A stretch of DNA of 64,000 nucleotides, from assembly GCA_026397135.1 (NCBI GenBank), contig JAPLVL010000001.1, positions 12,753 through 76,752 of the forward strand, read 5' to 3'. The DNA comes from Candidatus Berkelbacteria bacterium (GTDB lineage: Bacteria > Patescibacteriota > UBA1384 > XYA2-FULL-43-10 > 1-14-0-10-43-13). The position numbers were made by a program, and so were the translations under genes. Shown here piece by piece: positions 6,886 through 61,183 of the stretch (within the stretch, counting starts at the first letter, position 1; every line of letters begins with the position of its first letter). The notes under the pieces are model-generated. The model saw nothing but the letters and a program-made list of their open reading frames with translations, was not told the origin of the DNA and did not search any database.

Positions 6886-7256
6886 ATAGTCATTCTGAGC
6901 CGATCTAGCTTGGAGGCGAAGAATCTAGCGAAGCGCAAAATGTTTGTTTACATTATCACAAACTATAAAAATAATGTTTTCTATATTGGCGTCACGAATA
7001 ATCTGACAAGACGAATATATGAACACAAAAATAAGTTATTTAGCAATTCCTTTTCCAGTAGATACAACTTATACAAATTAATTTGGTTCGAGGAGTTCAA
7101 TACTGCAATTGAAGCAATTACCGCTGAGAAAAAAAGGGATGGAAACGAGAAAGAAAAATTGAGATGATCAAGAAAACAAATCCCAATTTTCAGGAAATTG
7201 AATCTTATTAGTTTACGCTTCGCTAGATCCTTCGCAAGAACACTCAGGATGACTAT
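6886..7256. mobile_element. GIY-YIG gene-carrying element bounded by ~45-bp imperfect terminal inverted repeats, inserted between hydD and hydA
   Basis: Left end atagtcattctgagccgatctagcttggaggcgaagaatctagcgaagcg (~6886-6935). The reverse complement of the right end (~7216-7256) is atagtcatcctgagtgttcttgcgaaggatctagcgaagcgt. The termini share ATAGTCATYCTGAG and GCGAAGRATCTAGCGAAGCG. Confidence 0.6.
6940..7167 (+). CDS. GIY-YIG (URI-domain) nuclease superfamily protein, COG2827-like
   Basis: MFVYIITNYKNNVFYIGVTNNLTRRIYEHKN has the GIY...YIG...R...EH signature. The track ORF begins at 6910, but the ATG at 6940 follows the left inverted repeat directly. Confidence 0.65.
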   Translation: MFVYIITNYKNNVFYIGVTNNLTRRIYEHKNKLFSNSFSSRYNLYKLIWFEEFNTAIEAITAEKKRDGNEKEKLR

Positions 7257-7297: not shown

Positions 7298-7606
7298 ATG
7301 GACAAGAATATCAAATTGATCAAGACTTTAATGATAATTATTGCCACCATCGACTCGATCGCAGCGATTGTCATATTTATCGGTATTAACCTTCTGGGAA
7401 ATATTGATTGCAGTTTGCCCCAAAAACCATGCTCAACCGAGTATTGGCCACTTTTGCTTTTATTGCCAACCATCATCTACACCATTGCTTCGCTCCAGAA
7501 GAACAAGATAGTTGGTATTGTCCTGAAATCAATAAGTATTCCCTTTTTGATAATATTCTTTCTTGTAACCTTAAATTACTTGTTAATGGCCAAAATAGGA
7601 AGGTAA
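7298..7606 (+). CDS. Hypothetical integral membrane protein (3 predicted TM helices)
   Basis: 102 aa, strongly hydrophobic. RBS aaggtaaaacaATG. Lies between the GIY-YIG element and hydA. Confidence 0.4.
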   Translation: MDKNIKLIKTLMIIIATIDSIAAIVIFIGINLLGNIDCSLPQKPCSTEYWPLLLLLPTIIYTIASLQKNKIVGIVLKSISIPFLIIFFLVTLNYLLMAKIGR

Positions 7607-8860: not shown

Positions 8861-8863
8861 AAG

Positions 8864-8904
8864 TGGGCAAGTACGCAAGTGGGGTGGGCAAGTACGCAAG
8901 TGGG
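8864..8904. repeat. Tandem direct repeat, 2 x ~21 bp (gtgggcaagtacgcaagtgg), directly after the hydA stop
   Basis: Read directly: gtgggcaagtacgcaagtgg g gtgggcaagtacgcaagtgg. Confidence 0.6.
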
Positions 8905-8990
8905 TATGTAAATAAGCTAGACAAACAAAAGTTTATCCCTGTGTCTACTTGTAACTTGCACACCTATTACCTGCGCACTAGTTAATTTAC

Positions 8991-9019
8991 TTGCAAACTG
9001 ATACACTTACATTTATAAT
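8991..9019 (+). promoter_or_regulatory. Sigma70-like promoter TTGCAA - 17 nt - TATAAT for the 9053 gene
   Basis: ttgcaa actgatacacttacatt tataat, then GGAGGG RBS 6 nt before ATG 9053. Confidence 0.45.
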
Positions 9020-9052
9020 AAAATTAAAATTAAAAGTTCTCTAGGAGGGAAA

Positions 9053-9409
9053 ATGGCAAAGAAAGTAGCAAAAAAGGCTCCAGCAAAGGCGCTTGATTTC
9101 AGTCAGGGAGGTAAAATCTCCAAAGTTCTCATTTATTTAATGTTGGCAGTCAATGTTATCACTGTTGCCTATTTTCTGGCTTTCAATCCAGCAGAGACAA
9201 CTGTCAACAACTTCACCAAGTTCCTGTCTCAATTTTCCAGCTACCTCTTCTTGACGATCCTCCTGATCGTGATCGCTGAATATTTCACGAAGCAAATCAA
9301 TGCCAAGCAAATGATGATGAAACTTCTGTCAGTTTTCGGTCTGATCGTTGGCATTATGCTTTCATACGCAATCGCACAAGTCGTCTTGGGTCTTATTGCT
9401 GTTAAATAA
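9053..9409 (+). CDS. Hypothetical membrane protein (Lys-rich N-terminus, 3 TM helices)
   Basis: 118 aa. Strong promoter and RBS upstream. Hydrophobic segments are clear. Confidence 0.5.
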   Translation: MAKKVAKKAPAKALDFSQGGKISKVLIYLMLAVNVITVAYFLAFNPAETTVNNFTKFLSQFSSYLFLTILLIVIAEYFTKQINAKQMMMKLLSVFGLIVGIMLSYAIAQVVLGLIAVK

Positions 9410-9420
9410 CAAGGTAGTCC

Positions 9421-9726
9421 ATGGTGTTTGAAGCCGGTGCTTCACCTTCAGATTTTGCATTTAGCAAAACCTCGCAGGCAGACAAAACAAAAAACGATCA
9501 AGTGGCAGCAATTTTGCCGATCCCAAATCAAACATTGGACAAAGTCAAAGAATTGGAAATGCAGATTTCACACCTTGAAGAGAATTTGAGAGCGACCAAG
9601 CGAGCTCTCATGGGTGGAAATCCGGATTTGGCCAAAAATATCAAAATATGGGAAGATCAACTGCAATTCAAATACCAAAAACTCCATCACTTCCGCCAGA
9701 AACTGAAAAATGAAAATTTAAACTAA
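9421..9726 (+). CDS. Hypothetical coiled-coil protein
   Basis: 101 aa, heptad-rich (LEMQISHLEENLRATKRAL). Confidence 0.4.
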   Translation: MVFEAGASPSDFAFSKTSQADKTKNDQVAAILPIPNQTLDKVKELEMQISHLEENLRATKRALMGGNPDLAKNIKIWEDQLQFKYQKLHHFRQKLKNENLN

Positions 9727-9752
9727 CATTTAGTTCACCGAATATAGTACTT

Positions 9753-9783
9753 AAAAAAATTCTCCACCGTGTTGACGGTGGAG
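9753..9783 (-). terminator. Rho-independent terminator between convergent genes: 9-bp perfect stem ctccaccgt/acggtggag, T7 run on the minus strand
   Basis: aaaaaaa ttctccaccgtgttgacggtggag, i.e. A7 on plus = T7 on minus right after the hairpin. The stop of the 9790..10257 gene abuts it. Confidence 0.6.
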
Positions 9784-9789
9784 CGGAAT

Positions 9790-10257
9790 TTAATATTCGT
9801 AATAGTAGCGCTCTTTGGGCAGTTCCAGTTTGTAAAACTTGAGCAAGCTCAAATTGGCCGGATTGTTAAGAATCGAAGTGAAAAAGTTGAAGACTTTGTC
9901 ATCGTGATTCTTGCCCTCGCAAGTAGCAACACAAGACGCCGGGATCTGACGGCTCTCAAATTCAATCAACTTCTCTCTTTTACCGGCCTCGTCCCCATTC
10001 CAGACTACCAACGCGAAGCTAAAACCAGCACGAGAAGAATGGATAGAGACAGGAAGATAATATTCCTGCACATAAGCAAGGATTCGCTCAAATTCCTGTA
10101 TTGTAAGATTGCGCCGTTCTTCCCAATTCGGCGCAGAGTGAGAAGTCCCGCTAATATTTGTCCGATAATGGATATAGCCTCGCTGCACCCAGATTGCCTC
10201 CTCGAGAGTCCTGAAAAACTCCAGAGCTTCAGTGGACAATGTTACCACCGATTCCAT
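9790..10257 (-). CDS. Hypothetical acidic protein
   Basis: 155 aa. Preferred over the overlapping plus-strand ORF 9769..10284, which starts inside the terminator hairpin and is Arg-rich low-complexity. Confidence 0.45.
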   Translation of the reverse strand: MESVVTLSTEALEFFRTLEEAIWVQRGYIHYRTNISGTSHSAPNWEERRNLTIQEFERILAYVQEYYLPVSIHSSRAGFSFALVVWNGDEAGKREKLIEFESRQIPASCVATCEGKNHDDKVFNFFTSILNNPANLSLLKFYKLELPKERYYYEY

Positions 10258-10390
10258 AGCGACATTCCTCCTCTTGTGATCTAGTTTGATTTATACCAAA
10301 AACAAACCCCAAAAGCAAAGTTGGTGTAGGATTACTTATTTTAACTGCTTGACTCGGTTGATTTCGTGTAACTGTTCACTTACACCGTTC

Positions 10391-10570
10391 GTCATCCTGA
10401 GGAATCGAAGGACCCATTCGGCTACGCTCAGCAGGTTCTAGAGCATGTGACCTGGGCTCGCAAAAAATGCGCCACGCTAGATTCCCATACTTACCGGTCA
10501 TCGACTCCAAGGTCGCTCAGACTCGAGGAGCAGGCAGGTTCGCCTTCAAGCATCATCTGCCCAGAATGAC
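10391..10570. repeat. Miniature (~180 bp, no ORF) copy of the GTCATYCTGAG-terminated inverted-repeat element, in a GC-rich intergenic region
   Basis: Plus-strand gtcatcctgagg at ~10391 and cccagaatgac (reverse complement of gtcattctggg) at ~10560. An internal cgctagattc is shared with the termini of the GIY-YIG element. Confidence 0.5.
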
Positions 10571-10602
10571 GGAAAATCACAATTTCACAACTCCTTGGCA
10601 AA

Positions 10603-12617: not shown

Positions 12618-13924
12618 TTTCTCAAATAAAGAACCACCCCACCGGGCCTTTCGTCTTTTGGTGCAACTCTGGATTTTGCTTCTTCGAGGTCAACTGATGG
12701 GTCATCGACAATAATGATGCCGTTTGTCATCCCCTTGCCAATTGTTCTACAGATTCCAGCGTCTTTTACAAAAACGACGCCGCCTTCAACCCACGAAAAG
12801 ACAATATTGTCACCAAATTTTTCAGGGATAGTAAAATTAATAACACCATGGTCAATTCTCAAGCTGTTAATATACGGGCTACTTTCGAAATATGTCACTT
12901 CGCGAACTGTCTCATAAGGATTCACAAAACCAACTTTATCTTTTTCTTCATCATAATATGCGATCGTGGTAGATTCACCGGGGGAAGTTGCTCCTGGTTG
13001 ACGATTACGAATTCTATTTCGCTTTGATTTCAGAAATATTGTTGGCGATAATGTTGGTCTGACTGAGATTTGTTCAAATCCAATATTTTCAATCAAAAAT
13101 GTACCGCCAGCCGTACCAAAACAAATTTCTGTGGTTAATTGGTCCTGCTTCGCCAAAAAATCCTTGACGTAAACCGTACCGCCGGAAGCTTTGGGAGCAA
13201 TCTCACCCCAACGCAATGTATTTATGATAATTGTGCCATTTTGCATTACTTCCCCGATAACACCAACTGCTTCGCCAACCTCCAGTCGTCCACCAAGCAT
13301 CTCTGGGGCAAGTTTTGGCACATTATCAGGCTGATTTTGTTCGAACTTTTCCAGTTTTACATCTCCAGCAAGCATTCTCAAAAAAGCAAACTGTTCTAGA
13401 CGATCAATCATAATATTGCCACCGTTTAAAGACGAACCAAAATTATGACAACGAGGGTCGTTTGAATAATTTGACAGATCATCAAATTTAATCCTGATCG
13501 GCTTCTTGCTTTGCTTGTAAATTGAGAAGAAAAGCCTAATTGCCTCAATTTGAAATGCGTCTGAAATTTCTCCGCTGCTAAACTGACCTTTAAGATATTC
13601 CATCAACCGATCAAAGTCAGACTGCCTAATCGACTTGTCTCTGTGTAATACTGGAACAGAATGCGGATCTACAATAATATCATTAACAGATGCTTTAACA
13701 AACGAACGCTTTGTTTGAGGCATACCGATTGCTGTCAAAAAATCCAGATCCAGCCGCGGGTATTCAGTCAGAAACTCATCGATTAACAATTTAATTTTAT
13801 CAGCAAAACCACGGGTATCTCCTTGCTTTTCACGACTCAAAGACAGAGAGAATTTCCGTTCAAGAGCTACCAAACTATTCATCATTTTTGTAATTTCACC
13901 GCAAATCATCACTTCATCACCCAC
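12563..13924 (-). CDS. GXGXG beta-helix-like repeat protein (GltB-domain-3/FwdC-like segments) with N-terminal M-I-CGEIT motif
   Basis: 453 aa. Segments GGRLEVGEAVGVIGEVMQNGTIIIN...GGTVYVKD and GGVVFVKDAGICRTIGKGMTNGIIIVDD resemble GXGXG repeats. Probable start MICGEIT (~13909). Confidence 0.45.
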   Translation of the reverse strand: MGDEVMICGEITKMMNSLVALERKFSLSLSREKQGDTRGFADKIKLLIDEFLTEYPRLDLDFLTAIGMPQTKRSFVKASVNDIIVDPHSVPVLHRDKSIRQSDFDRLMEYLKGQFSSGEISDAFQIEAIRLFFSIYKQSKKPIRIKFDDLSNYSNDPRCHNFGSSLNGGNIMIDRLEQFAFLRMLAGDVKLEKFEQNQPDNVPKLAPEMLGGRLEVGEAVGVIGEVMQNGTIIINTLRWGEIAPKASGGTVYVKDFLAKQDQLTTEICFGTAGGTFLIENIGFEQISVRPTLSPTIFLKSKRNRIRNRQPGATSPGESTTIAYYDEEKDKVGFVNPYETVREVTYFESSPYINSLRIDHGVINFTIPEKFGDNIVFSWVEGGVVFVKDAGICRTIGKGMTNGIIIVDDPSVDLEEAKSRVAPKDERPGGVVLYLRKWVEGKYFKKKKAEFILL

Positions 13925-13965
13925 TTAATTCTTACTGCTTACTTCTTAATCCTTGCTACTTATTC
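13925..13965. repeat. Heptamer-periodic CTTAAT/CTTACT-type intercistronic repeat
   Basis: ttaattcttactgcttacttcttaatccttgctacttattc, the same family as at 23598, 34238 and 47490. Confidence 0.5.
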
Positions 13966-16515
13966 GTACCCAAATTTCTTGATGAACCAAACCTTGACTA
14001 TTTGAACCAAAAATATATATACAGCGGCCAACCCCAGAATAATCAGGAAAAAGAGTGCTGGTAGCGGCGTGAAGCCAAACCACCTAGCCAAAACAGTGTA
14101 GGGGATAATCGCCCCGACAAAAATAACTGCGATTAATGTATAGAGCAAATATTTGCTCGCTCTGCTCTGGATAAGAGGGATTTTCTTGGTTCGGATAATC
14201 AGGACGACCAGAGTTTGGGTCAAGAGTGACTCAACAAACCAACCAGTGCGAAAGAGTGGAGGCGTGGCGCGAAAGACATACCACATAATACCGAAGGTAG
14301 CAAAATCAAAGAGCGAACTAACTGGGCCGATCGTCCACATAAATTCCTTGATGAAGTTAACATCCCACGGTCGCGGCTTCTGTAAGTCTTCTGCGTCAAC
14401 ATTATCAAGCGGCAGGGCTACCTGGGACAAATCATAGAGAAAATTGTTGAGCAGTACCTGCGGCGGCAACATCGGCAGAAATGGTAGGAGAATACTGGCA
14501 CCAGTCATACTGATCATATTTCCTAAGTTAGAGCTCGCTCCCATTTTGATGTACTTAATCACATTGACAAAGGTCTTCCTGCCCTCGATAACGCAATCAC
14601 ATAGAACTCTGAGATCCTTTTCCAATAGGATAATCGCGGCCGTTTCCTTGGCAATATCCATACCAGTGTTGACCGAAATCCCAACATCAGCCGACTTCAA
14701 GGCTGGTGCATCATTGACTCCATCACCAAGGTAACCGACAACATGACCATTCGACTGGAGCGCTTTGATAATTTTTTCCTTTTGCAAAGGCGTCAGCCTG
14801 ACAAAAACGTTTGCCTTTGCCACCAGCTCTCGCAGGACATGTTCGCTCGCGCTGCTAATCTCATTGCCATTTACGATACCGCTGATCGAAAAATTAACTT
14901 CGTTACAAATTTTCCTGGTCACCATTTCGTTGTCGCCTGAAAGAATCTTGAGAGATACTCCCAAGCCTGCCAAGCTCGTAATAGTATCGCTAACATCAGG
15001 TTTGGGCGGATCGAGGAAGGTTACAAATCCCTGGAAAACCAAATCAGATTCGTCTTCAAATTGAAGCTTGGTTTTGCTACGAATCTTCTTGGTCGCTATT
15101 GCCAAAACACGAAAACCTTCGCGGCTGAGCGATTCATATAGAGATATAATCTTTTCCTTTGATTTCTTGGAAAGAGGTAGAGCGACCTCTTTCAGCGAGA
15201 AATGGCTTGATTTGGCAATTATTTCCTCCGGCGCTCCCTTTGCGACCAAGAGATCCTTGCCAGCACGACGCAACACGACCGACATCATTCGCCTTTCAAA
15301 ATCGTAGGGCAGTTCATCAATTTTCTCGTAATGAGACGTTTCAATTTTTTGATGCTTTAGAATCGCTTGATCCAAAACATTTTTCAAACCGGTTTCAAAA
15401 TGACTATTCAAATATGCATAACGAAAAATCGAGATGTCTTCCCTACCCTTAGCGTCGCAATATTTAATCAGAGCGATACTGTCGAGTGTCAGCGTGCCCG
15501 TCTTGTCGGTACAGAGGATATCCATCGCACCGAAATTTTGGATCGAATCCAGCTTTTTGACAATTATTTTTTTCTTCTCCATCTGCATCGCGCCGCGGGA
15601 GAGATTGACCGTCACAATCATCGGCAACATCTCAGGTGCCAAGCCAACTGCTACCGCCAAGGAAAATAATAACGCATCGACAATGTTACCCTTGAAAATC
15701 GCGTTAAAGAAGAAGATAAATGCTGCCAAGATGATAATCAAACGAATCATCAGCCAGGTGTAGGATTTAATACCTTTTTCGAAGGCCGTCTCAACTCCGA
15801 CTTTGGAAATATCTTCACTCAACATTCCAAACTGAGTTCCCTTGCCGATTGCTAAGACAACTCCGATTCCGGTGCCTCCGACAACACTTGAGCCCATGAA
15901 AATAATATTATCGGAGTCTAAAATATCGTCACTTTTAATTTCGCTTGCCCATGAATCTTTGATCACCGGGAAAGATTCGCCGTTTAGGGACGACTGATTA
16001 AGATACAGACGATTGGCTGAAATCAGCCTAATATCAGCTGGAACCATATCCCCAACCCCAAGCGCGACCAGGTCACCTGGCACCAATTCCTCCAGATTTG
16101 TCGTCCTTTCGTGGCCATCACGAATTACCTTGACTTTGATTTTGACTCTCTCGGCTAGTTTCTGAGCATTTCGGTTGGCTCGATATTCCTGAACAAAAGA
16201 AAGGATCACACTCAAAACAGCCAGAGCAATCACAATAATTGAGTTTATTTGTTCACCGAAATAGAAAGAAACCCCAGCCACCACAAAGAGAGTGATAACT
16301 AGAGGGTTAGCAAACTTAGACAAGAGCTGAACAACTGGCCCATATTTCTGAGCCGCAATTTTGTTGGCACCATAAAAACGCTGGCGGCGGCGGACTTCCC
16401 GCTCCGACAAACCTTTTCTGCCTGTTTTGTATTGCTGCAAAGCTTTCTCCGGAGCAAGACGACTAATTTCAAAAACAAGGCTTTGGGTTACGACCTGATT
16501 TTTCATTCCCTCCAT
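13960..16515 (-). CDS. mgtA: P-type ATPase, MgtA-like (Mg2+-importing) cation transporter
   Basis: 851 aa. Phosphorylation motif CTDKTGTLT, hinge GDGVNDAPAL, and an MgtA-like N-terminal cytoplasmic region. Confidence 0.8.
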   Translation of the reverse strand: MEGMKNQVVTQSLVFEISRLAPEKALQQYKTGRKGLSEREVRRRQRFYGANKIAAQKYGPVVQLLSKFANPLVITLFVVAGVSFYFGEQINSIIVIALAVLSVILSFVQEYRANRNAQKLAERVKIKVKVIRDGHERTTNLEELVPGDLVALGVGDMVPADIRLISANRLYLNQSSLNGESFPVIKDSWASEIKSDDILDSDNIIFMGSSVVGGTGIGVVLAIGKGTQFGMLSEDISKVGVETAFEKGIKSYTWLMIRLIIILAAFIFFFNAIFKGNIVDALLFSLAVAVGLAPEMLPMIVTVNLSRGAMQMEKKKIIVKKLDSIQNFGAMDILCTDKTGTLTLDSIALIKYCDAKGREDISIFRYAYLNSHFETGLKNVLDQAILKHQKIETSHYEKIDELPYDFERRMMSVVLRRAGKDLLVAKGAPEEIIAKSSHFSLKEVALPLSKKSKEKIISLYESLSREGFRVLAIATKKIRSKTKLQFEDESDLVFQGFVTFLDPPKPDVSDTITSLAGLGVSLKILSGDNEMVTRKICNEVNFSISGIVNGNEISSASEHVLRELVAKANVFVRLTPLQKEKIIKALQSNGHVVGYLGDGVNDAPALKSADVGISVNTGMDIAKETAAIILLEKDLRVLCDCVIEGRKTFVNVIKYIKMGASSNLGNMISMTGASILLPFLPMLPPQVLLNNFLYDLSQVALPLDNVDAEDLQKPRPWDVNFIKEFMWTIGPVSSLFDFATFGIMWYVFRATPPLFRTGWFVESLLTQTLVVLIIRTKKIPLIQSRASKYLLYTLIAVIFVGAIIPYTVLARWFGFTPLPALFFLIILGLAAVYIFLVQIVKVWFIKKFGYE

Positions 16516-17521: not shown

Positions 17522-17592
17522 TGTAACTCCAATCTTAAATATTAAATATTAAACATTAAAACTTAAATCCATATCTTATTATCTTTTATCTA

Positions 17593-17985
17593 TTATGTTT
17601 TTCCTTTTAGGGTTAATAGACTTTTGGCAATCATTTTACTTATTTGCTCAAGCTCATCCAGTAAATTTTCAACACAAGAAATCTCCAAACCAGACCCTTC
17701 AATTTCATGCAAAATCCAGAGCCAATATTCTGATTCATTAGCACTTTTCAGAGCTATTTCGTAAAACTTAATAAAATCGCGCCTCGACGAAGACGATTTG
17801 GCTTCAATAATATTTGCTCCGATTGAAGTAATGGCACGAACCAACTGATCCGTTATAATCCAGAATATTTTTGACTGTGGCAATTTTTGGCATAATTGAA
17901 TAATCTGTAATGACAAATTGAATGCTCTGAGCTTGACGTTGGATTTCACGTTAAGTTTTTCGTTGTTAAGATATGGGTTTAACAT
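17593..17985 (-). CDS. Four-helix-bundle protein (TIGR02436 / 23S rRNA intervening-sequence protein family)
   Basis: Track ORF 17593..18138 overlaps tpiA. The family is ~120-130 aa, so the start is taken at Met ~17985. Conserved core IGANIIEAKSSSSRRDFIKFYEIALKSANESEYWL. Confidence 0.6.
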   Translation of the reverse strand: MLNPYLNNEKLNVKSNVKLRAFNLSLQIIQLCQKLPQSKIFWIITDQLVRAITSIGANIIEAKSSSSRRDFIKFYEIALKSANESEYWLWILHEIEGSGLEISCVENLLDELEQISKMIAKSLLTLKGKT

Positions 17986-17992
17986 TTGAGAT

Positions 17993-18736
17993 TTAAGATT
18001 TAAAATTCTTAGAATTACTCCAAACTCGACAGATTTCAATAAATTCTGCCGCCCGCACACTTGCTCCGCCGACCAATACACCATCGATTTCAGGACGCTC
18101 TGCGTAGCCTGCAATATTGCTCCCCTTGACACTACCACCGTATAATATCGGCGTCGCAGTATGTAGTAATTCCCGCAGTTTTACCGCCACTTTCGCGACA
18201 TATTCCGGCTCAGCATTTTCGCCAGTCCCAATCGCCCAAATTGGTTCATAGGCGACAATGATATCCTTGAAATATTTCTTCGGTACATGATAGAGCGCCG
18301 CAGCCAATTGACGAGTCGGTTCAGCCGCATTATTTTGACGCTTCCTTTCCCCCACGCAAATAATTGGCGTAATTCCATGTTTCAGAGCAGCCAAAACCTT
18401 TTCGTTTACATCTTGGTCTGATTCGTCAAAATATTGTCTCCTCTCAGAGTGACCGACAATGCAAAATTTGGCCATTTCTGCAACCATCGATGGTGCAATC
18501 TCTCCAGTGAATGCACCTTCCTCTTCGTAAGCCATATTCTGAGCGCCGAGCAAAATTTTCTTGTTGTCGCCCAAAATATTCTTGATCTCAGGAAGCCAAA
18601 GAGCCGGCGGACAGAGAACGACTTCTATCCCGATGACAGGCGCCACTTTGTTCCGAATCGTAGTTGCCAAGATGTGCGCATCTGCGATACTGGTTGCATA
18701 CATTTTCCAATTGCCAACGATAATCGAGCGCTTCAT
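17993..18736 (-). CDS. tpiA: Triosephosphate isomerase
   Basis: 247 aa. AYEPIWAIGTG active-site signature and a GGSV loop. Confidence 0.9.
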   Translation of the reverse strand: MKRSIIVGNWKMYATSIADAHILATTIRNKVAPVIGIEVVLCPPALWLPEIKNILGDNKKILLGAQNMAYEEEGAFTGEIAPSMVAEMAKFCIVGHSERRQYFDESDQDVNEKVLAALKHGITPIICVGERKRQNNAAEPTRQLAAALYHVPKKYFKDIIVAYEPIWAIGTGENAEPEYVAKVAVKLRELLHTATPILYGGSVKGSNIAGYAERPEIDGVLVGGASVRAAEFIEICRVWSNSKNFKS

Positions 18737-19823: not shown

Positions 19824-19913
19824 GAATTAAATCTATCATTTGCACTCAAATAGTTCAATCACACAAGAGATAATATTATAAACAAAATAAACAAAAACTC
19901 ACAAATATTCATT

Positions 19914-19955
19914 GCGTCGTGAAAAATGGGACGATCGTCCCATTTTTCACGACGC
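19914..19955. terminator. 42-nt perfect palindrome (19-21-bp arms) downstream of uvrC: terminator-like hairpin or operator
   Basis: gcgtcgtgaaaaatgggacgatcgtcccatttttcacgacgc. On the minus strand it follows the uvrC stop by ~40 nt and precedes a T-rich stretch and a TATAAT upstream of yvcK. Confidence 0.5.
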
Positions 19956-20008
19956 AACCTTAGAACAATATGAGACTGGAAAATATAACTGTGATTAAAA
20001 GATGGAAA

Positions 20009-21406
20009 TTAATTTTCAATCATCCCCTCGCGATGCAGTTTGCGGTAGAACGAAATTGCAAATCTATGCGCTTCATCCCGAGTCGCAATACAGACATTTT
20101 GAAGAGAGATATTGCCGGCAAAATATTTGGCGACTTCAGAATTGGCAAAATGAAAGTCGTTCTTCTGTCTCTTGGGTCCTTTGGAGATAGAGACAAGCGG
20201 TATTTGTAACTCAAAATCACTCAAAACTTCCTTTGCCACCCGCAATTGCATCTCTCCTCCATCAATTACAATTAAATCTGGTTTTGGCCAATCATTCCGA
20301 AACCTCCGCTCCAGAACCTGCTTCAACCGAAACAGATCATTATTGTCATTTCGACCCGTCTGCACGGCAGGCAGGCTCGACGAAGTCGGTGGAGAAATCT
20401 GGAGTGAAGTGTCATCCTGATCTTGTCGAAGGATCTCATCCTTTGCGGAAAATCTATCAACCCCAGGAACATCGCTCGAGATGACAGAATTATTAATTTT
20501 GAACTTTCTGTACTCATCAGAGGCTTTTCTTCCGTCAACAAATACGACCATTGAGCCAACAACATATTCATCCCCAATATTAGCAATGTCGTAGCACTCA
20601 ATCCGTTTGAATAATATTTTATTACTATCAAAAACGTCATCGCGAAGTCCGATCACTACTTCAGAGATATGTTGCAGGGCATACAATTTATTACGAACAA
20701 TGGCCGCTTCTTCAAATTTCTCTTTTTTTGAAAAACGTGTCATTTCCTTCTCGAGATCGCGAATTATCTCCTGCTTTTTACCACGCAAGAACGCTTTCAA
20801 ATATTTAATATTTTTATTGTAATTTTCCGCACTAATACTACCAACACAAGGTGCCGTACAAATTTTTATATCTCCATAAATGCACGATCGACCCTTTTTG
20901 GCGGCTGAACTATATTTCGTCTTTGTACAATCACGAAAAGGAAAAATTTTGCGAAGATATCGTATCGATTTCTTAAGCAACAATCCTGCAGGGTAAGGTC
21001 CGAAATAGTCAGCCGACTTGTCCGAAAAATCAACATTCTTAACCCGAACCAGCTCAAGGACGGGAAATGCTGTTTTTGTAATTTTCTTGGCTATCTTAAT
21101 AACCAAGAAGGATTTATCGTCCTTTAGTCTCACGTTGTACTTCGGCTTCAATTTGTTGATCAGCTCAGCCTCAAGCAAAACCGCTTCAATCTCTGACCCA
21201 GTTTCGATATATTTAATATCAAAAGCCTTTTCTACCATTTGCTCAATCGCTGGTCCACGGCCCAACTCTTTCAGGAAATATTGCTTCAGGCGATTCTGCA
21301 AGTTTTTCGCTTTACCCACATACAAAATCCCTCCCTTTTCATCAAGGAAGCGATAAACACCCGGCTTTTTGGGCAAATCTTTAATTTTGTCTTTTGAATT
21401 TATCAT
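20009..21406 (-). CDS. uvrC: Excinuclease ABC subunit C (UvrC), apparently lacking the C-terminal (HhH)2 domain
   Basis: N-terminal GIY-YIG (KPGVYRFLDEKGGILYVGKAKNLQNRLKQYF) and a C-terminal RNase H-like region ending RDEAHRFAISFYRKL. Track ORF runs to 21505; likely start MINSKDK (~21406). The protein stops ~12 aa after AHRFAI. Confidence 0.8.
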   Translation of the reverse strand: MINSKDKIKDLPKKPGVYRFLDEKGGILYVGKAKNLQNRLKQYFLKELGRGPAIEQMVEKAFDIKYIETGSEIEAVLLEAELINKLKPKYNVRLKDDKSFLVIKIAKKITKTAFPVLELVRVKNVDFSDKSADYFGPYPAGLLLKKSIRYLRKIFPFRDCTKTKYSSAAKKGRSCIYGDIKICTAPCVGSISAENYNKNIKYLKAFLRGKKQEIIRDLEKEMTRFSKKEKFEEAAIVRNKLYALQHISEVVIGLRDDVFDSNKILFKRIECYDIANIGDEYVVGSMVVFVDGRKASDEYRKFKINNSVISSDVPGVDRFSAKDEILRQDQDDTSLQISPPTSSSLPAVQTGRNDNNDLFRLKQVLERRFRNDWPKPDLIVIDGGEMQLRVAKEVLSDFELQIPLVSISKGPKRQKNDFHFANSEVAKYFAGNISLQNVCIATRDEAHRFAISFYRKLHREGMIEN

Positions 21407-21546
21407 TATCAAATATTTCTCCACCCTCCTTGAGGAGTCGAAATGACAACAAAAGGAAGTTTGCGAATTTCCGCTCATTATATGAGTTTTCATCAAAATA
21501 TTCAAGCTATAGGCACGGAAACAGAAATTGCTTGAACAATATAGAG

Positions 21547-23597: not shown

Positions 23598-23660
23598 ATT
23601 CTTAATTCTTACTGCTTAATTCTGAATTCTTAATCCTGACTCCTGACTCCTGAAATAATT
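23598..23660. repeat. Heptamer-periodic intercistronic repeat (cttaattcttactgcttaattctgaattcttaatcctgactcctgactcctga)
   Basis: Between the frr end and the rseP start. The minus-strand sense reads TCAGGAGTCAGGAGTCAGGATTAAGAATTCAGAATTAAGCAGTAAGAATTAAGAA, i.e. SD-like AGGAG/AGGAT plus TAA stops. Confidence 0.55.
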
Positions 23661-27557: not shown

Positions 27558-28599
27558 TTTTTTGATGAATTTATCACAAACGAATAAAAAACTATTTGAG
27601 TTATTTAAGTCAGCCAAATCACCAAATCCAGAGCTTGATGCTTCTATAATTCTGGAATTTGTTTTGAAGATCAAAAGGGCAGAGGCACTCACCCACCCCA
27701 AGCTAATTCTCAAGGAGAGCCAAACTGCCAAGATTTTCAAACTCGCGAAAAGACGCTTAATTGGTGAACCTATCGCCTACCTCACTAACCACAAAGAATT
27801 TTTTGGGTATGATTTTTTCGTAAACAAAAATGTCCTTATCCCCCGCCCCGAGAGTGAATGGCTAATTGAGCATTCGCTCGAGCTTATAAAGTCCAAGGTC
27901 CAAAAAGTTGAAGGCAGATTTCATATTCTTGATCTCGGCACCGGTTCCGGCTGCCTAATCATATCGCTAGTGAGTCAGTTAATCAGCGAGCCAGCGACTG
28001 GGCTATTTAATTTTTTCGCGAGCGATGTTTCGAGCAAAGCCATCGTAGTTGCCAAGAAAAATAGCAAAACTTTACTTAGCCGTCATTCTGAAAGAAGTGA
28101 AGAGTCCTATAAAGGTGAGGGGATCCTTCGCCATGCTCAGAATGACACAATCAAATTTATTCATTCTAGCCTCTTCTCCAACCATCTACTTCGCAAGAAA
28201 TTTGATCTCATTATCGCCAATCTCCCCTATGTGCCCATCACCGATTATCATCTCGACTCTTCGACACTTTCGTCGAAGTTGGAGAGATCTTCTACTGAAG
28301 AAAATTATATAAAATTGCAAGATCTCTCGACTCCACTTCGTTCCACTCGAGATGACAATGGTATTGCATTCGAGCCAGCCTCCGCGATTTTTGCACAAGA
28401 CAACGGAGCCGAGATCATCAAAATATTTTTATCCGAATCGCTAAAATATTTAGCCAAGAACGGAGTCATCTTAATCGAACTTGATCCTCGCAATGCAATC
28501 GAACTGGAGAAATTTTCCAGAAAAACCTATCCGAACGCCAAAATAAAACTCGAAAAAGATCTGGCTGGGCTTGATCGGTATCTCTCGATAGAAAACTAA
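27550..28599 (+). CDS. prmC: Release-factor glutamine N5-methyltransferase (PrmC/HemK) with a large internal insertion
   Basis: 349 aa. SAM-binding [15 protein letters not shown] and catalytic IANLPYVP (NPPY variant), with ~90 extra residues between them. Overlaps prfA by 8 nt. Confidence 0.8.
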
Positions 28600-34227: not shown

Positions 34228-34237
34228 TTTTCCACCA

Positions 34238-34310
34238 GAATTAAGAATTAAGAATTAAGAATTAAGTAACATTTTACTTACTGCTTAATCCTTACTGCTT
34301 ACTACTGAAT
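34238..34310. repeat. Heptamer-periodic intercistronic repeat (attaagaattaagaattaagaattaag…cttactgcttaatccttactgcttact)
   Basis: Between the gatA end and the ppiB start; same family as at 23598 and 47490. Confidence 0.55.
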
Positions 34311-37159: not shown

Positions 37160-39205
<2,046 letters not shown>

Positions 39206-47489: not shown

Positions 47490-47555
47490 ATTACTAGCCG
47501 CCTACTTGCTTAATGCTTAATACTGAATCCTTAATCCTGAACCCTTAATCCTTAT
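47490..47555. repeat. Heptamer-periodic intercistronic repeat (cttaatgcttaatactgaatccttaatcctgaacccttaatcctta)
   Basis: Between ftsE and ftsX. Confidence 0.55.
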
Positions 47556-50092: not shown

Positions 50093-52912
50093 TTATTTTC
50101 CACAGCATTTCTTGTATTTCTTGCCGCTTCCACATGGACAAGGATCATTGCGGCCCGGTTTGGCCACGTGTTTCACCTGTGAAGCAGGGCCAGTCGCCGC
50201 CGATTCTTTCATCCGATCGAAGACAGTCTTCTTTTGCGACAACATTACGCTTTCGCTATCAGCCCTGTTTGTATTAGATTCAGCCATCATCTTCTGTGCC
50301 ATTGCTAAATCTTCTTTTTCTTTGTCAAATCCGCCAACTTTATCAACCACTGGTTCAGAATAAAGAAGAGGTTTTGATTCTTCAGAAACTGGCTTCGGTG
50401 CCTGATTGTTTATCTTTATTTCAATTTTGAAGATTGTGCGGGCAACCATAGCTTCAATATTCTGTAAAAGCGCCTCAAAAAGTCGGTACGCTTCCTGTTT
50501 GTACTCAACCAATGGATCACGCTGACCGTAACCCTGCAAGCCAATTCCGGTACGCAATTCATCCATCGTTGTCAGGTGTTCAATCCAGAGCATATCGATT
50601 GTCCGAAGATAAACCATCTTTTCAACCTCTCTGGTGACATTTGATCCGTACTTTTGCTCTCGATCATCATAAATTTTTCTTACAAATTGTTTCAATTCGA
50701 CAATATCAAGTGAAGGCAGGATAATCTCGCCGAAAATCGCTTTGAGTTCCATTCTCAATTTATCCTGATCTTCGATATAGAGATTGCAGATTTTTTCAAT
50801 TTCCTCTTCCAATATCTCCAAAATCTCATCCTTCAGCGAAAACTCTTCTTCCTCACTCCTGACTTCTGACTCCTGACTTCTGGCTTCTGAGTCTTGGCTT
50901 CTGGCTTCTGAGTCCTGACTTCTGACTTCCGACTTCCCGTCCTCCTCTTGTCGAATGGATTTGCTTTCAGATTCTAATACTCGACGGCGTTTTCGGTAAA
51001 TAACCTCACGGTGCTTATTCATCACATCATCATACTCAACCAGATGTTTGCGGATATCAAAATTGTATCCTTCAACCCTCTTCTGTGCCGATTCAATCGA
51101 GTTGGAGATCATCCGATTTTCAATCGGCATCTCATCGGGCAGACCCAGAGAGTTCATAATATTCTTTAGCCGATCACCACCAAAAATCCGCATCAAATCG
51201 TCATCCATCGAAACAAAAAACTGAGATGAGCCGGCGTCACCTTGGCGACCAGAACGACCGCGCAACTGATTATCAATACGACGCGCTTCGTGTCGCTCAG
51301 TTCCAAGCACATGCAGACCACCCAATTCCCGCACCCCTTCACCAAGTTTAATATCAGTACCACGACCAGCCATATTAGTCGCTACCGTGACAGCACCAAC
51401 CAAACCGGCCTTGGAGATTATTTTTGCTTCGCGTTCATGATTCTTCGCGTTCAATACCTCATGTTTTATCCCAGCTCTCTTCAGAGCTTTTGACAGAATT
51501 TCATTCTTGGACACAGAAACAGTACCAATCAAAATCGGTTGGCCCTTGTCGTGGCGTATTCGAACATCTTCGGTAATAGCAGTAATTTTCGCTTCCTCAG
51601 TTTTGTAGATCCGATCGGGAACATCAAGCCGAGCAACCGGTTTGTTTGTTGGAATTTCAACAACATCAAGCTTATAAATTTTGAAAAATTCCTCCGCTTC
51701 GGTCGCGGCAGTACCGGTCATACCTGACAATTTCTTATACATCCGGAAAAGATTTTGGAACGAAATCGTGGCCAAGGTTTGTGACTCATTTTTGACTTCA
51801 ACATTTTCCTTCGCCTCAATCGCTTGGTGCAGACCTTCAGAATACCGGCGGCCAACCATCAACCGTCCTGTAAACTCATCTACAATCATTATTTCGCCGT
51901 CCTGGACTACATAATCTCGATCTTTCTGGAAAAGAGCATGCGCCTTAAGTGCCTGTTCTAGATGGTGAACCATCGTAATACCACCAACTTCGTAAATATT
52001 GTCGATATGGAGCATTTTCTCCATCTCGTGAATTCCTTTATCGGTCAGTGTGACAGTCTTTTCCTTCTCGTCAATAACATAATCATCTGTTTCAGTAAGC
52101 CGAGGAACCAAGGCGGCAAATTGTTGATACATCCCGCCCGATTCTTCAGCCGGAGCTGAAATAATAAGCGGCGTCCTGGCTTCGTCAATCAATATCGAGT
52201 CCACCTCATCAACAATTGCAAAATATAGCTCCCGCTGGACGCAAAGTTCTAGATTTGGCGCCATATTATCGCGCAAATAGTCGAACCCAAATTCGTTGTT
52301 TGTACCATAAGTAATGTCAGCATGATATGCATCGCGCCGACTACATGGTTCCAGGTTCAATCCCTCACACTCCGAATAGTGTTTGTAATCATGGCTTTTT
52401 TTGAAACGATAAGTCTCTTGATTGCTCTGAATGATACCAGTCGAAAGTCCCAAAAAGTCAAAAACTTGTCCCATTCCCTCGCCCTGATGTTTCGAGAGAT
52501 AATCATTTACCGTTACCAAGTGAGCGCCGCGACCGGCTAATGAATTTAAATATAGAGGGAGTGTCGCTACGATTGTCTTACCTTCACCAGTTTTCATCTC
52601 GGCGATTTTGCCTTGGTGAAGCACGAGGCCACCAATTATTTGTACGTCAAAATGGCGCTCTCCCCAGACACGCTTCATCGCTTCTCGCAATACAGCAAAG
52701 GCCTCAGGCGCGATCTGCTCAAGTATCTCGTCTTCGGAAATCTCTGATTCTCTGTCTTTGATTCGATTCCGAAACTCAGTCGTCTTCTGTTTCAACTCCT
52801 CGCCAGAGAGATTACTGACCTCCTTTTCGAAATCACTGATTTCCCTAACCTGACGCTCCAAAGCGCCAATCACTCTTTTGCTCGGATTGTAAAATTTATC
52901 AATTAAACCCAT
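50093..52912 (-). CDS. secA: Preprotein translocase ATPase SecA, with an in-frame heptad-repeat insertion
   Basis: DEAD-like motor motifs and C-terminal zinc finger CPCGSGKKYKKCCG. Likely start MGLIDKFYNPS (~52912; track ORF extends to 52978). Insertion EVRSQDSEARSQDSEARSQESEVRSEEEE. Confidence 0.9.
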   Translation of the reverse strand: MGLIDKFYNPSKRVIGALERQVREISDFEKEVSNLSGEELKQKTTEFRNRIKDRESEISEDEILEQIAPEAFAVLREAMKRVWGERHFDVQIIGGLVLHQGKIAEMKTGEGKTIVATLPLYLNSLAGRGAHLVTVNDYLSKHQGEGMGQVFDFLGLSTGIIQSNQETYRFKKSHDYKHYSECEGLNLEPCSRRDAYHADITYGTNNEFGFDYLRDNMAPNLELCVQRELYFAIVDEVDSILIDEARTPLIISAPAEESGGMYQQFAALVPRLTETDDYVIDEKEKTVTLTDKGIHEMEKMLHIDNIYEVGGITMVHHLEQALKAHALFQKDRDYVVQDGEIMIVDEFTGRLMVGRRYSEGLHQAIEAKENVEVKNESQTLATISFQNLFRMYKKLSGMTGTAATEAEEFFKIYKLDVVEIPTNKPVARLDVPDRIYKTEEAKITAITEDVRIRHDKGQPILIGTVSVSKNEILSKALKRAGIKHEVLNAKNHEREAKIISKAGLVGAVTVATNMAGRGTDIKLGEGVRELGGLHVLGTERHEARRIDNQLRGRSGRQGDAGSSQFFVSMDDDLMRIFGGDRLKNIMNSLGLPDEMPIENRMISNSIESAQKRVEGYNFDIRKHLVEYDDVMNKHREVIYRKRRRVLESESKSIRQEEDGKSEVRSQDSEARSQDSEARSQESEVRSEEEEFSLKDEILEILEEEIEKICNLYIEDQDKLRMELKAIFGEIILPSLDIVELKQFVRKIYDDREQKYGSNVTREVEKMVYLRTIDMLWIEHLTTMDELRTGIGLQGYGQRDPLVEYKQEAYRLFEALLQNIEAMVARTIFKIEIKINNQAPKPVSEESKPLLYSEPVVDKVGGFDKEKEDLAMAQKMMAESNTNRADSESVMLSQKKTVFDRMKESAATGPASQVKHVAKPGRNDPCPCGSGKKYKKCCGK
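50845..50935. repeat. 7-nt-periodic tandem repeat inside the secA coding sequence (ctgacttctgactcctgacttctggcttctgagtc…)
   Basis: Read directly: ~13 heptamer units, in frame (21 nt = 7 aa). Same heptamer family as the intercistronic repeats, e.g. ctgactcctgactcctga at 23640. Confidence 0.6.
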
Positions 52913-58738: not shown

Positions 58739-58785
58739 TTTAAAAGCTGACTTGCTCACCTGCTTACCTGCATACTTGCAACTAT

Positions 58786-60078
58786 TTATCTTCTAATTTC
58801 CGAAAATCCGGTATATTTCTGCAGAACCTCTGGTATTTGAATCGAGCCGTCAGACTGCTGACCGTTTTCCATGATTGCAATTATAGCACGGCTGTTCGCA
58901 ATTGCAGTACCGTTAAGCATATGGACAAAATCTTTTTTGCCAGAATCGTCAACAAATTTAATATTTAGAGCACGGGACTGATAATCAGTACAATTTGAAG
59001 TAGATGTAATTTCAGCCCAATCACCCATGCTCCCGTCTTTGTTCGGCTTGCCTGGCATCCAGGCTTCCAAATCAAAGGTGCGAATCGATGGTGCACCCAA
59101 GTCCGCCGTGCAATGATCAATGACGCGATATGGAATTTTCAAACCATCAAACAATTCTTTTTCGATTACCAACATTTCATCGTGAGCTTTTTCAGAATTT
59201 TCTGGCGTCGTATACTGAAACATTTCAATCTTCGTAAACTGATGAACTCTGAAGGTACCTTTGGAAAATTTGGAGTAACTGCCAGCTTCTGTACGAAAAC
59301 AATGCGAGACAGCTATATATTTCTTTGGTAATTCAACAGCTTTAAATAACTCATCTTTGTGATAACCGCCCATCGTGATTTCGGCAGTAGCAATCAAACT
59401 CAAATCAGAGTTTTCAATGTTATAAATCTGAGTCGCTTCGCCCCGTGGGTTGAAACCCATGCAAGCCAAAATTTCCCGTTTGGCCAGATCAGGAGTAGTG
59501 AAAGGCGTAAAACCGTGTTTCGTTGCCACCGACAGCGCATACTGGATTAGAGCAAATTCGAGAACAGCTAGTTCATTTTTGAGATAATAAAATTTAGCAC
59601 CAGAGACTTTTGCTGCTCGTTCAAAATCGATTAGATCTAACTTTTCCGCTAACTGAACATGATCAAGCGGCTTAAATTCAAATTTGGTTGGCTTGTATTT
59701 CTGTTCTACGACCGGATTATCGTCTTCGTCATCACTAACCTTTACCGACTTGTGAGTCAAATTTGGCACCTGAAAAAGCAATGCGGTGAATTCTTCCTCA
59801 AACGGAAGCAAACTTTTTTCGGCCTCGGCAATTTCTGCCCCGACTTGTTTCATCTCCACAATTTCTTCAGGCGTCGGCTTGTTCTTGGAAACCTTGTTGC
59901 GTTGAGCCCTCAAATCTTCAATTTTTGCCTCCAGCTCCCTTTTGCTCTTGTCGAGGAGAAGCAAACGGTCAATATCAACATCAGAAAGTCGAATCTTGCA
60001 ATTTTCCCTAATCAGCTCCGCATTCTCACGAATAAATTTAATATCAAGCATATTTTTCCTCTGTCGTTCCGGATTCAA
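58786..60078 (-). CDS. serS: Seryl-tRNA synthetase
   Basis: Class II aaRS motifs and N-terminal coiled-coil arm. The track starts at a TTG; more likely start is the ATG 9 codons in (~60050), giving MLDIKFIRENAELIR, preceded by AGGA. Confidence 0.9.
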   Translation of the reverse strand: MNPERQRKNMLDIKFIRENAELIRENCKIRLSDVDIDRLLLLDKSKRELEAKIEDLRAQRNKVSKNKPTPEEIVEMKQVGAEIAEAEKSLLPFEEEFTALLFQVPNLTHKSVKVSDDEDDNPVVEQKYKPTKFEFKPLDHVQLAEKLDLIDFERAAKVSGAKFYYLKNELAVLEFALIQYALSVATKHGFTPFTTPDLAKREILACMGFNPRGEATQIYNIENSDLSLIATAEITMGGYHKDELFKAVELPKKYIAVSHCFRTEAGSYSKFSKGTFRVHQFTKIEMFQYTTPENSEKAHDEMLVIEKELFDGLKIPYRVIDHCTADLGAPSIRTFDLEAWMPGKPNKDGSMGDWAEITSTSNCTDYQSRALNIKFVDDSGKKDFVHMLNGTAIANSRAIIAIMENGQQSDGSIQIPEVLQKYTGFSEIRR

Positions 60079-60109
60079 TCCGGAAATTATTTAATTCTTT
60101 TTTGGATCC
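60040..60109. repeat. Direct repeat copy 1 (70 bp; serS promoter/RBS/first codons), pairs with 61114..61183
   Basis: aatatcaagcatatttttcctct [16 divergent nt] tccggaaattatttaattcttttttggatcc: 54/70 identical to copy 2. Confidence 0.7.
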
Positions 60110-60117
60110 TGAATCAA

Positions 60118-60302
60118 GCTCAGGATGACAAAATATTTTTACCTATTTGCTGGCTCACTATTTCTTATCACCTAATAGTTTTTTAATTTTAGTGGCAGGC
60201 AAAAAGTTCTCTCCTGTAACTACATTTTGCCCTGTTTTTTGCTCAAGCGCAATCCTCGCATCCTTGGCAACGCTGTCACTTTCTAATTTTGTCATTGCGA
60301 GC
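60118..60302. repeat. Miniature inverted-repeat unit (~185 bp, no ORF) with gctcaggatgacaaaat / attttgtcattgcgagc termini, adjacent to GIY-YIG gene 2
   Basis: Termini are reverse-complementary (14/17 match). A hairpin cccactcagagtggg lies just beyond, at ~60305-60319. Confidence 0.55.
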
Positions 60303-60332
60303 CATCCCACTCAGAGTGGGAGGCGCGGCAAT

Positions 60333-60632
60333 CTATCCAATAATTTCCTGATACAAATCCAGAAAATTGGGATTATCCTTGGTTATTAAATCGATTTTCT
60401 TCTGCCTTGACCCTGCTTTAATTTGTTTTTCTCGATTGATAGCAGAATTTGAATCGCTATATAATTCGTAATAAACTAGCTTCGTTACATTATATCTTCC
60501 GGTGAAACTTTCGACAACCTTGTTTTTATGTTCGTAAACTCTACGGATAATGTTATTTGTTACTCCAGTATAAATTACCGTATTGGTATGATTTGTCATC
60601 AGATAAACATAGTAATATTGTTCCAATTTCAT
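60333..60632 (-). CDS. GIY-YIG (URI-domain) nuclease superfamily protein, second copy
   Basis: 99 aa. YYYVYLMTNHTNTVIYTGVTNNIIRRVYEHKN, paralogous to the 6940..7167 protein (YIITNYKNNVFYIGVTNNLTRRIYEHKN). Confidence 0.7.
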   Translation of the reverse strand: MKLEQYYYVYLMTNHTNTVIYTGVTNNIIRRVYEHKNKVVESFTGRYNVTKLVYYELYSDSNSAINREKQIKAGSRQKKIDLITKDNPNFLDLYQEIIG

Positions 60633-61067: not shown

Positions 61068-61113
61068 CTTGTCGCCATTTCAGCTTCGTTTTAGGAAGCG
61101 TCCCCGATTTTCT

Positions 61114-61183
61114 AATATCAAGCATATTTTTCCTCTATCACTCTGGACTTGCTCCGGAAATTATTTAATTCTTTTTTGGATCC
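61114..61183. repeat. Direct repeat copy 2
   Basis: See copy 1. On the minus strand it supplies AGGAAAAATATGCTTGATATT (the serS-like RBS + MLDI), continuing into a 25-codon leader ORF that overlaps the Bro-N start. Confidence 0.7.

Follow-up and report, generated by a model that had tools for sequence, protein, structure and literature searches.

The Ssn proteins are a family of GIY-YIG nucleases of approximately 94 amino acids (CDD cd10448) whose genes lie between hairpin repeats; in Neisseria the repeats are known as NTS (CGTCATTCCCGCGMAVGCGGGAATCYRG), and their general name is Ssn-related motifs or SRM (Chenal et al., 2025, Nat Commun 16:2388; PMC11893778). NTS contains the older Neisseria repeat dRS3. 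Work on the Neisseria and Wolbachia enzymes showed that the hairpin is bound only as single-stranded DNA and on one strand only, and that it is nicked a few nucleotides 5' of a GTC trinucleotide; the three nucleotides 5' of the palindrome govern cleavage, the C just 3' of it is the most critical base for binding, and SsnA does not bind RNA (PMC11893778). In N. meningitidis, where 2% of NTS are intragenic, the function of Ssn is the modulation of natural transformation (PMC11893778). Rickettsia is listed among the SRM-rich genera, and the authors raise an analogy, and only that, with insertion sequences (IS) and with repetitive extragenic palindromes (REP) and their REP-associated tyrosine transposases (RAYT); no transposition activity has been published for Ssn (PMC11893778), and our literature search found no follow-up demonstrating one. 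Characterisation of the system has been confined to Neisseria and a small number of other bacteria in culture. Here we describe hairpin repeats in a 64-kb stretch from a Candidatus Berkelbacteria bacterium (contig JAPLVL010000001.1, positions 12,753 to 76,752 of the forward strand; 'the window' throughout), a member of the Patescibacteria or candidate phyla radiation (CPR). An earlier note had singled out a unit without an open reading frame (ORF) at 10391-10570, here called unit 2, as belonging to a MITE-like family (MITEs are miniature transposable elements with inverted repeats) mobilised by a GIY-YIG protein. The repeats of the window are very probably Ssn-related hairpins (NTS-like SRM) accompanied by two copies of the partner gene ssn. 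The system is an instance of the published Ssn/SRM kind, and the feature is essentially explained by the 2025 paper.

Evidence for this assignment comes from the two small GIY-YIG genes and from the repeats that enclose them. The predicted proteins are 91-99 amino acids long and contain the GIY-YIG domain (PF01541) and no other Pfam domain; an NCBIfam search of both returned no specific family. When ssn#2 was compared with an N. gonorrhoeae chromosome by tblastn (E 6e-20), the target was a 94-amino acid ORF with canonical NTS flanks, the SsnA orthologue, to which the protein aligns end to end with 43% identity over 90 amino acids (E 4e-30). The comparison sequence, L024 (NZ_CP119140.1), was taken from PLSDB, where 2.17-Mb N. 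gonorrhoeae chromosomes are listed as plasmids. After repair of a frameshift the ssn#1 product also aligns end to end, with 40% identity (E 3e-24). These E values lie below the threshold by which Chenal et al. (2025) defined homology (tblastn E < 1e-10). Both genes are flanked by hairpins on both sides, at 6889-6925 and 7226-7253 in the case of ssn#1 and at 60291-60333 and 60639-60668 in the case of ssn#2, and the resulting cassettes and their immediate surroundings are as follows.

6889-6925, + strand: SRM-type hairpin, left end of cassette 1 (GTC-ATTCT...AGAAT-C), with the subterminal TAGCGAAGCGCAAA after it; homologous to one end of a cassette in a related locus (L014).
6940-7211, + strand: ssn#1, a small GIY-YIG (Ssn-family) gene, frameshifted.
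7226-7253, - strand: SRM-type hairpin, right end of cassette 1 (GTC-ATCCT...AGGAT-C), its stem changed in a compensatory manner relative to the left end.
60105-60129, - strand: solo short-loop hairpin (GTC-ATCCTGA-GCTTGAT-TCAGGAT-C) between a small ORF and the start of serS.
60291-60333, + strand: hairpin, one end of cassette 3 (GTC-ATTGC...GCAAT-C).
60333-60632, - strand: ssn#2, encoding an intact 99-amino acid single-domain GIY-YIG protein, an SsnA homologue.
60633-61067, - strand: truncated Bro-N family gene that ends inside a hairpin; its product aligns to residues 1-119 of a 280-amino acid homologue.
60639-60668, - strand: hairpin, the other end of cassette 3 (GTC-ATTGC...GCAAT-C), coinciding with the point of Bro-N truncation.

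The first of these cassettes is the unit that the earlier note had described as inverted ends around a GIY-YIG ORF, and that description holds, with bounds of 6889-7253. A further unit proposed at 60118-60302 does not stand. Its motifs are oriented the wrong way (ATGAC to the left, GTCAT to the right), they belong to different subtypes (CCTGAG and TGCGAG), and the sequence between them carries an ORF of 45-50 amino acids. The right-hand motif is in fact the end of the true cassette at 60291-60668, which encloses the second GIY-YIG gene, and the left-hand motif belongs to the solo hairpin at 60105-60129. As the earlier note had it, the ends form one family tied to GIY-YIG genes; of its three units, the third was mis-paired. 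The coincidence of the Bro-N truncation with a hairpin provides evidence that a gene was entered, or rearranged, by the cassette. The small ORF at 60158-60310 was considered as a C-terminal tail of Bro-N; it gave no BLASTP alignment, and alignment past residue 130 in a phage collection was weak. A 71-bp direct repeat with 89% identity (60039-60109 and 61113-61183), comprising the serS promoter and ribosome binding site region and the first four codons, brackets a segment of about 1 kb that contains the truncated Bro-N gene, ssn#2 and the solo hairpin. This arrangement gives the segment the appearance of having integrated at the serS 5' end. A reading of the two genes as homing endonucleases of group I introns was rejected, as no Rfam intron family was found in the window and the proteins are single-domain, lacking a DNA-binding domain.

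Each motif 'end' proved to be a DNA hairpin rather than a simple terminal repeat, made up of GTC, a palindrome that begins with AT and ends with AT, and C. The motif GTCATYCTGAGC, with at most one mismatch, occurs 7 times in the window compared with 0.46 +/- 0.67 times in shuffled sequence, and none of 100 shuffles reached 7. A relaxed pattern (GTCAT-xyz...z'y'x'-ATC) gave 11 matches compared with 3.0 +/- 1.9 in shuffles (maximum 9 in 200); its matches at 19703 and 47366, both within conserved coding sequence, were set aside as chance. A more general finder of hairpins with a 7-nucleotide stem and one mismatch gave 13 in the window against a background of 12.3, no excess, and was dropped. The total for the window is 15 hairpins, namely four cassette ends, the two arms of unit 2, three in uvrC, one in the uvrC leader, two doublets in prmC and one solo hairpin. 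The three copies in 64 kb counted previously were too few, since the three in uvrC, the one in its leader and both prmC doublets had been missed. GTCAT, a 5-nucleotide stem with its exact complement, and ATC are found together in 11 of the 15. Departures from the plan occur in both arms of unit 2, at 21414-21447 (ATA end), at 28082-28108 (GAGTC), at 28121-28146 (T-G in the stem) and at 28247-28289 (ATC in place of GTC). The stems covary, with ATTCT/AGAAT, ATCCT/AGGAT, ATTGC/GCAAT, ATTTC/GAAAT and ATCTC/GAGAT pairs representing compensatory changes between copies. The hairpins are arranged singly, as inverted doublets with GTCAT at both outer ends, or in pairs around an ssn gene, giving cassettes of 365-378 bp. 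Those outside the cassettes, together with the solo hairpin given above, are the following.

10391-10570, - strand: unit 2, an ORF-less, GC-rich, decayed inverted doublet.
20345-20485: three hairpins in uvrC (20345-20399, + strand; 20411-20435, + strand; 20432-20485, - strand), 141 bp read in frame.
21414-21447, - strand: solo, slightly degenerate hairpin (ATA end rather than ATC) in the uvrC leader.
28082-28146: inverted hairpin doublet of 65 bp, in frame inside prmC (hemK).
28247-28356: second inverted hairpin doublet, of 110 bp, in frame inside prmC, with ATCAT in place of GTCAT at its left end.

A GC-rich module (CCTGCCTGC...) recurs in the loops of otherwise unrelated hairpins, at 10509-10530 and 20360-20385 in the window and at 2700-2725 in a related locus, L013. 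Hairpin loops seem to be hot spots for secondary insertions.

Further support came from related genomes. A genome scan with UvrC found close relatives only among Patescibacteria/CPR metagenome-assembled genomes (Ca. Berkelbacteria and bins labelled 'Saccharibacteria'), the best with 63-66% identity, and the gene order of these relatives is largely collinear with the window; the related loci (given L numbers here) were picked via uvrC. Exact look-ups of the window proteins led to a single Logan assembly, SRR20698641. In L012 there is a pair of cassettes (353 and 355 bp) with canonical NTS (GTCATTCCCGCGSAGGCGGGAATC) as their ends, and these ends match the published SRM pattern; the ORFs of the pair are approximately 80% identical and their terminal hairpins 100% identical. 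The cassette of L014, of 361 bp, belongs to the subfamily of cassette 1: its ends are likewise ATTCT/AGAAT and ATCCT/AGGAT, it shares the subterminal TCTAGCGAAGCG, and its Ssn is 69% identical. GTCAT is outermost at both ends in all cassettes of L012, L014 and the window, as it is in every doublet. The L014 cassette and cassette 1 occupy the same spacer upstream of the hydrogenase large-subunit gene; this spacer is empty in L005 and L011 and is an empty 25 bp in L013, the sister of L014 (77% UvrC identity). Related genomes thus show filled and empty orthologous sites, here and in uvrC, which indicates that elements have been gained or lost. Between cassette 1 and the hydrogenase large-subunit gene the window also has a hydrophobic ORF of 102 amino acids (7298-7606), which is absent in L013 and L014, where the spacer is 25-40 bp.

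The hairpins were also sought in metagenomes with the pattern GTCATYCTGRG-N5-35-RATCTAGCG, in which one stem pair was left free, and at least 120 loci were obtained. Among the matches listed, the free pair is Watson-Crick in 85 of 89 distinct hairpins (C-G in 58 and T-A in 27; Fisher p 3e-18, a figure inflated by the relatedness of the copies), the loop is often GAGCGNAGCGA, an ssn ORF lies alongside the hairpin in approximately 5 of 120 loci, and all 35 of 35 inverted partners are found at 63-156 bp with no ORF between. As judged from this covariation, the hairpin is under structural constraint. The GAGCGNAGCGA loop embeds GCGNAGC, a DNA mini-hairpin of very high stability that is flanked by G·A pairs, and this fits a structure formed at the level of DNA.

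Unit 2 was then compared with cassette 1. As described previously it is 180 bp long and ORF-less, lies between hypC and the next gene, is GC-rich (55% compared with 42.5% for the window and approximately 38% for its flanks) and shares a cgctagattc block with cassette 1, a block that forms part of a longer similarity. Its right arm (10478-10570) is an end of the type seen at the left of cassette 1 with approximately 54 extra nucleotides in the loop; when reverse-complemented, the right end agrees with the left end of cassette 1 in 26 of 32 positions and, within the subterminal GAATCTAGCG..GCGCA block, in 15 of 17. Its left arm (10391-10443) is an end of the type seen at the right of cassette 1 and shares GTCATCCTGAG and CGAAGGA with it. 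The ends and subterminal blocks therefore stand in the correct relative orientation for a cassette of this type without its gene. A scan of 10391-10570 found no ORF of note and no promoter-like or terminator-like site, and an Rfam search of the unit at E values up to 1 gave no match. When folded as single-stranded DNA, neither strand was better than shuffled sequence and the arms no longer formed a closing stem, so that unit 2 as a whole does not qualify as a structured element. No second copy of its interior was found in the window, in approximately 220 kb of CPR loci from relatives or in metagenome loci totalling 700 kb, where only the sequence itself and a Logan contig from the same sample were recovered. 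On these comparisons unit 2 is most likely to be an ORF-less derivative of a cassette of the first type, now a decayed and inactive relic; because the interior is single-copy and the arms do not fold, it is to be regarded as one isolated, decayed remnant and not as a MITE with demonstrable activity. The unit lies at the hypC edge of a variable 1.7-kb segment (8861-10602) that extends from the hydrogenase large-subunit gene to hypC and contains three small ORFs in addition to unit 2; in L006 and L011 this segment is only approximately 70-75 bp.

Seven of the 15 window hairpins lie within uvrC or prmC, in contrast to the 2% reported for N. meningitidis. Among the related loci the intragenic fraction is biased, since these were chosen through uvrC. 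When compared with solved structures that align on both sides, UvrC has about 45-47 extra residues and PrmC about 53. In an alignment of 13 UvrC orthologues, including that of the window, two insertion hot spots are occupied by hairpins whose subtype varies with the CPR lineage, and in some lineages they are empty. At site B an insertion is present in the window, L003, L012, L013 and L014 and missing from 7 of 12 orthologues; the two terminal hairpins of this site are common to the window and L003, with extra material nested in the loops in the window. Site A, which is empty in the window, holds long hairpin-derived insertions in L004, L005, L013 and L014 and shorter extra segments in L003, L008 and L012. 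The inserted peptides are translations of the hairpins, VIPAEAGIQ, for example, being that of the Neisseria NTS. A copy arriving in coding DNA would be retained only if its hairpin can be read in frame as part of a tolerant loop, as in uvrC and prmC. Just past the 3' end of uvrC there is also a perfect palindrome of 23+23 nucleotides without a spacer (19912-19957).

The likeness to the Ssn/SRM system thus consists of a single-domain GIY-YIG protein of approximately 95 amino acids, a gene flanked on both sides by hairpins of GTC, an AT-palindrome and C, hairpins that far outnumber the genes, and relatives of the same CPR clade that have canonical NTS. Several findings weigh against the assignment. 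The published SRM pattern (HGTCWYN(0-2)YYVSBRHN(0-5)WNVSBRGN(0-2)RNCYNB) matches none of the 15 window hairpins, its one match in the window, at 38333, being unrelated; it does match the ends of both cassettes in L012, one hairpin each in L005 and L014, and 7 sites of the Neisseria locus. The window hairpins are missed because their closing stems are AT-rich, at 5 bp, and their loops longer, reaching approximately 80 nucleotides. By nearest-neighbour folding, z is approximately 0 for 9 of the 15, and most of them, having only the 5-bp closing stem, are no better than shuffled sequence; only two, at 60291-60334 (z -4.5; one end of cassette 3) and 60104-60129 (z -2.1; the solo hairpin before serS), are clearly stable. 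The GTCAT ends face the gene in Neisseria and Planktothrix but outwards in the window, so that the position of the cut with respect to the gene is not that of the studied case. This outward orientation gives compact, IS-like units of 353-378 bp in the window and its relatives. One of the two ssn genes is frameshifted by a 4-nucleotide deletion in an A-run near 7133, as compared with its L014 homologue; from the sequence this could be either a pseudogene or an assembly error at the homopolymer. The cassettes of the window and L014 may have been inherited vertically at one site rather than being mobile. Finally, we know of no GIY-YIG enzyme that forms a covalent DNA intermediate, and a role as a transposase would need extra host functions.

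Two further classes of repeat invite comparison. With REP sequences and their doublets (bacterial interspersed mosaic elements, or REPINs) and the accompanying RAYTs, the window repeats share short hairpins with a conserved 5' tail, inverted doublets, recognition as single-stranded DNA, a small single-copy gene between two inverted hairpins, and long vertical persistence. They differ in that the partner is a hydrolytic GIY-YIG nuclease and not a Y1/HUH tyrosine transposase, as seen from the genes flanked by hairpins, and in that REPs are extragenic whereas the window hairpins are often intragenic. The intragenic copies recall the Rickettsia palindromic elements (RPEs), palindromes of approximately 100-150 bp found in frame in unrelated housekeeping genes and translated as extra peptide segments (PMC10969869). 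As in that case, the window palindromes are in frame in coding genes and, in uvrC, missing from orthologues, the likeness drawn here being one of architecture. RPEs differ in having no mobilising protein assigned to them, and our literature search found no paper that links them to GIY-YIG genes, none that links Patescibacteria to the Ssn system and none that treats palindromes within Patescibacteria genes. REP/REPIN-like Ssn-related hairpins is a better description of the family than classical MITEs.

A route by which such units might spread can be proposed. With GTCAT at the outward ends, Ssn would be predicted to nick on either side of each unit, and on opposite strands, wherever single-stranded DNA is exposed, for example during replication, repair or DNA uptake. 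Units could then be copied or lost via host repair or strand-annealing, on which the process would depend given that GIY-YIG enzymes are not known to make a covalent intermediate. Such copying or loss would be nearer to the REP/REPIN-RAYT model than to the cut-and-paste movement of a MITE.

The reading as Ssn-related repeats leaves room for different views of what the hairpins do. A tentative case can be made that they are signals domesticated by the host, at which Ssn cuts incoming or exposed single-stranded DNA and so tunes transformation or recombination, the hairpins themselves spreading and persisting by recombination and selection. This would agree with the modulation of natural transformation in N. 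meningitidis (PMC11893778). It would also agree with the presence of a cassette in the same intergenic region in the window and L014, where the identity of Ssn (69%) is close to that of the neighbouring hydrogenase (63%) and fits long vertical residence, and with the two L012 cassettes, in which identical terminal hairpins alongside ORFs that have diverged by 20% suggest selection on the hairpins. It leaves unexplained, however, why nearly half of the hairpins are in essential ORFs, why the Bro-N gene breaks at a hairpin and why sister genomes differ, and it is not exclusive of a mobile origin. A domesticated role of this kind might lie in single-stranded DNA restriction or in recombination control.

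The MITE interpretation, in the strict form that unit 2 and the other ORF-less doublets are active classical MITEs, internal deletions of an autonomous GIY-YIG transposon that are cut and pasted by Ssn, is unlikely. Like classical MITEs such as the Correia elements, the units are short and ORF-less, have terminal inverted repeats, here with GTCAT at the extremities, and are scattered in intergenic and sometimes genic positions; unit 2, moreover, has the terminal inverted repeats and subterminal blocks of the autonomous-type cassette 1, ORF-less doublets of 63-156 bp are widespread among the metagenome matches listed, and filled and empty sites are seen among relatives. Against this, no direct repeats indicative of target-site duplication were found in the 12-nucleotide flanks of six units, no parent IS with a DDE transposase is present, and the doublets are unlike one another internally, which is not what is expected of near-identical copies of one deletion derivative. 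No near-identical copy of unit 2, with its decayed arms, was found in the window and approximately 0.9 Mb of fetched loci; Ssn is a hydrolytic nuclease for which no strand-transfer activity has been published; and the paralogous cassettes of L012, at approximately 80% identity in the ORF, argue against recent bursts. What survives of the GIY-YIG-mobilised, MITE-like family of the earlier note is the descent of unit 2 from a cassette of the first type and the gain and loss of elements; the lack of target-site duplication and the single decayed copy do not fit it.

It is very improbable that the palindromes act in RNA, as terminators, attenuators or processing sites, with the GIY-YIG association being incidental. 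Several copies are intergenic at gene ends (unit 2 after hypC and the hairpin at 60105 before serS) and the hairpins would form in RNA too, but they occur in both orientations and within ORFs, unit 2 has neither a terminator-like nor a promoter-like site, published SsnA does not bind RNA, and both window ssn genes have hairpins on both sides. An Rfam scan of the whole window at gathering thresholds found no family and no tRNA, and the relaxed search of unit 2 was equally empty. That the matches are chance palindromes or assembly artefacts, for which it can be said that single 5-bp stems are weak, that the relaxed pattern has a background of approximately 3 per window and that one Logan contig breaks inside unit 2, can be dismissed on the strength of the motif enrichment, the stem covariation, the UvrC alignment with its homologous insertions in independently assembled genomes, and the homologous cassettes of L012 and L014.

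In addition to the published system, the present data add its occurrence in CPR bacteria, a phylum not mentioned in the main text of PMC11893778, a layout that would place the predicted nicks on either side of each unit, the gain and loss of hairpins between sister genomes, and in-frame hairpins that are common in essential genes, unlike in Neisseria. They also allow the authors' notion of an IS-like element, either domesticated or active, to be put to a concrete test and suggest a possible link to the intragenic palindromes of the Rickettsia type. For annotation, the hairpins account for peptides such as VILSEAKNL, HAQND and VIPAEAGIQ that recur in CPR proteins, and for spurious small ORFs to which they give rise. 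The intragenic insertions and the geometry of the cassettes are the aspects most worth following. A bolder proposal, which we consider doubtful, is that the Patescibacteria Ssn cassettes of approximately 350-380 bp, whose GTCAT ends, on the cleavage side, point outwards, are self-contained mobile units, the smallest autonomous mobile elements known, and that the ORF-less doublets spread in the manner of RPEs into essential genes, where they persist as in-frame translated loops. Loops of this sort are seen at the uvrC and prmC hot spots, with hairpin subtypes that differ between lineages. If true, Ssn would supply the mobilising enzyme that has long been missing for a class of intragenic palindromic elements, and would be a source of new protein loops in streamlined genomes.

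Other repeats were noted in the window. Tandem repeats, mostly with a period of 7 or multiples of it (CTTAATC, ACTTCTG, AGAATTA), are present in many intergenic spacers, at the following positions.

8863-8904: tandem repeat.
13924-13974: tandem repeat.
17531-17568: tandem repeat.
23598-23653: tandem repeat.
34237-34303: tandem repeat.
47509-47554: tandem repeat.
50855-50936: tandem repeat.
58743-58781: tandem repeat.

A pair of AT-rich inverted repeats of 41 nucleotides, 80% complementary and 388 nucleotides apart (17538-17578 and 17967-18007), possibly represents another small element.

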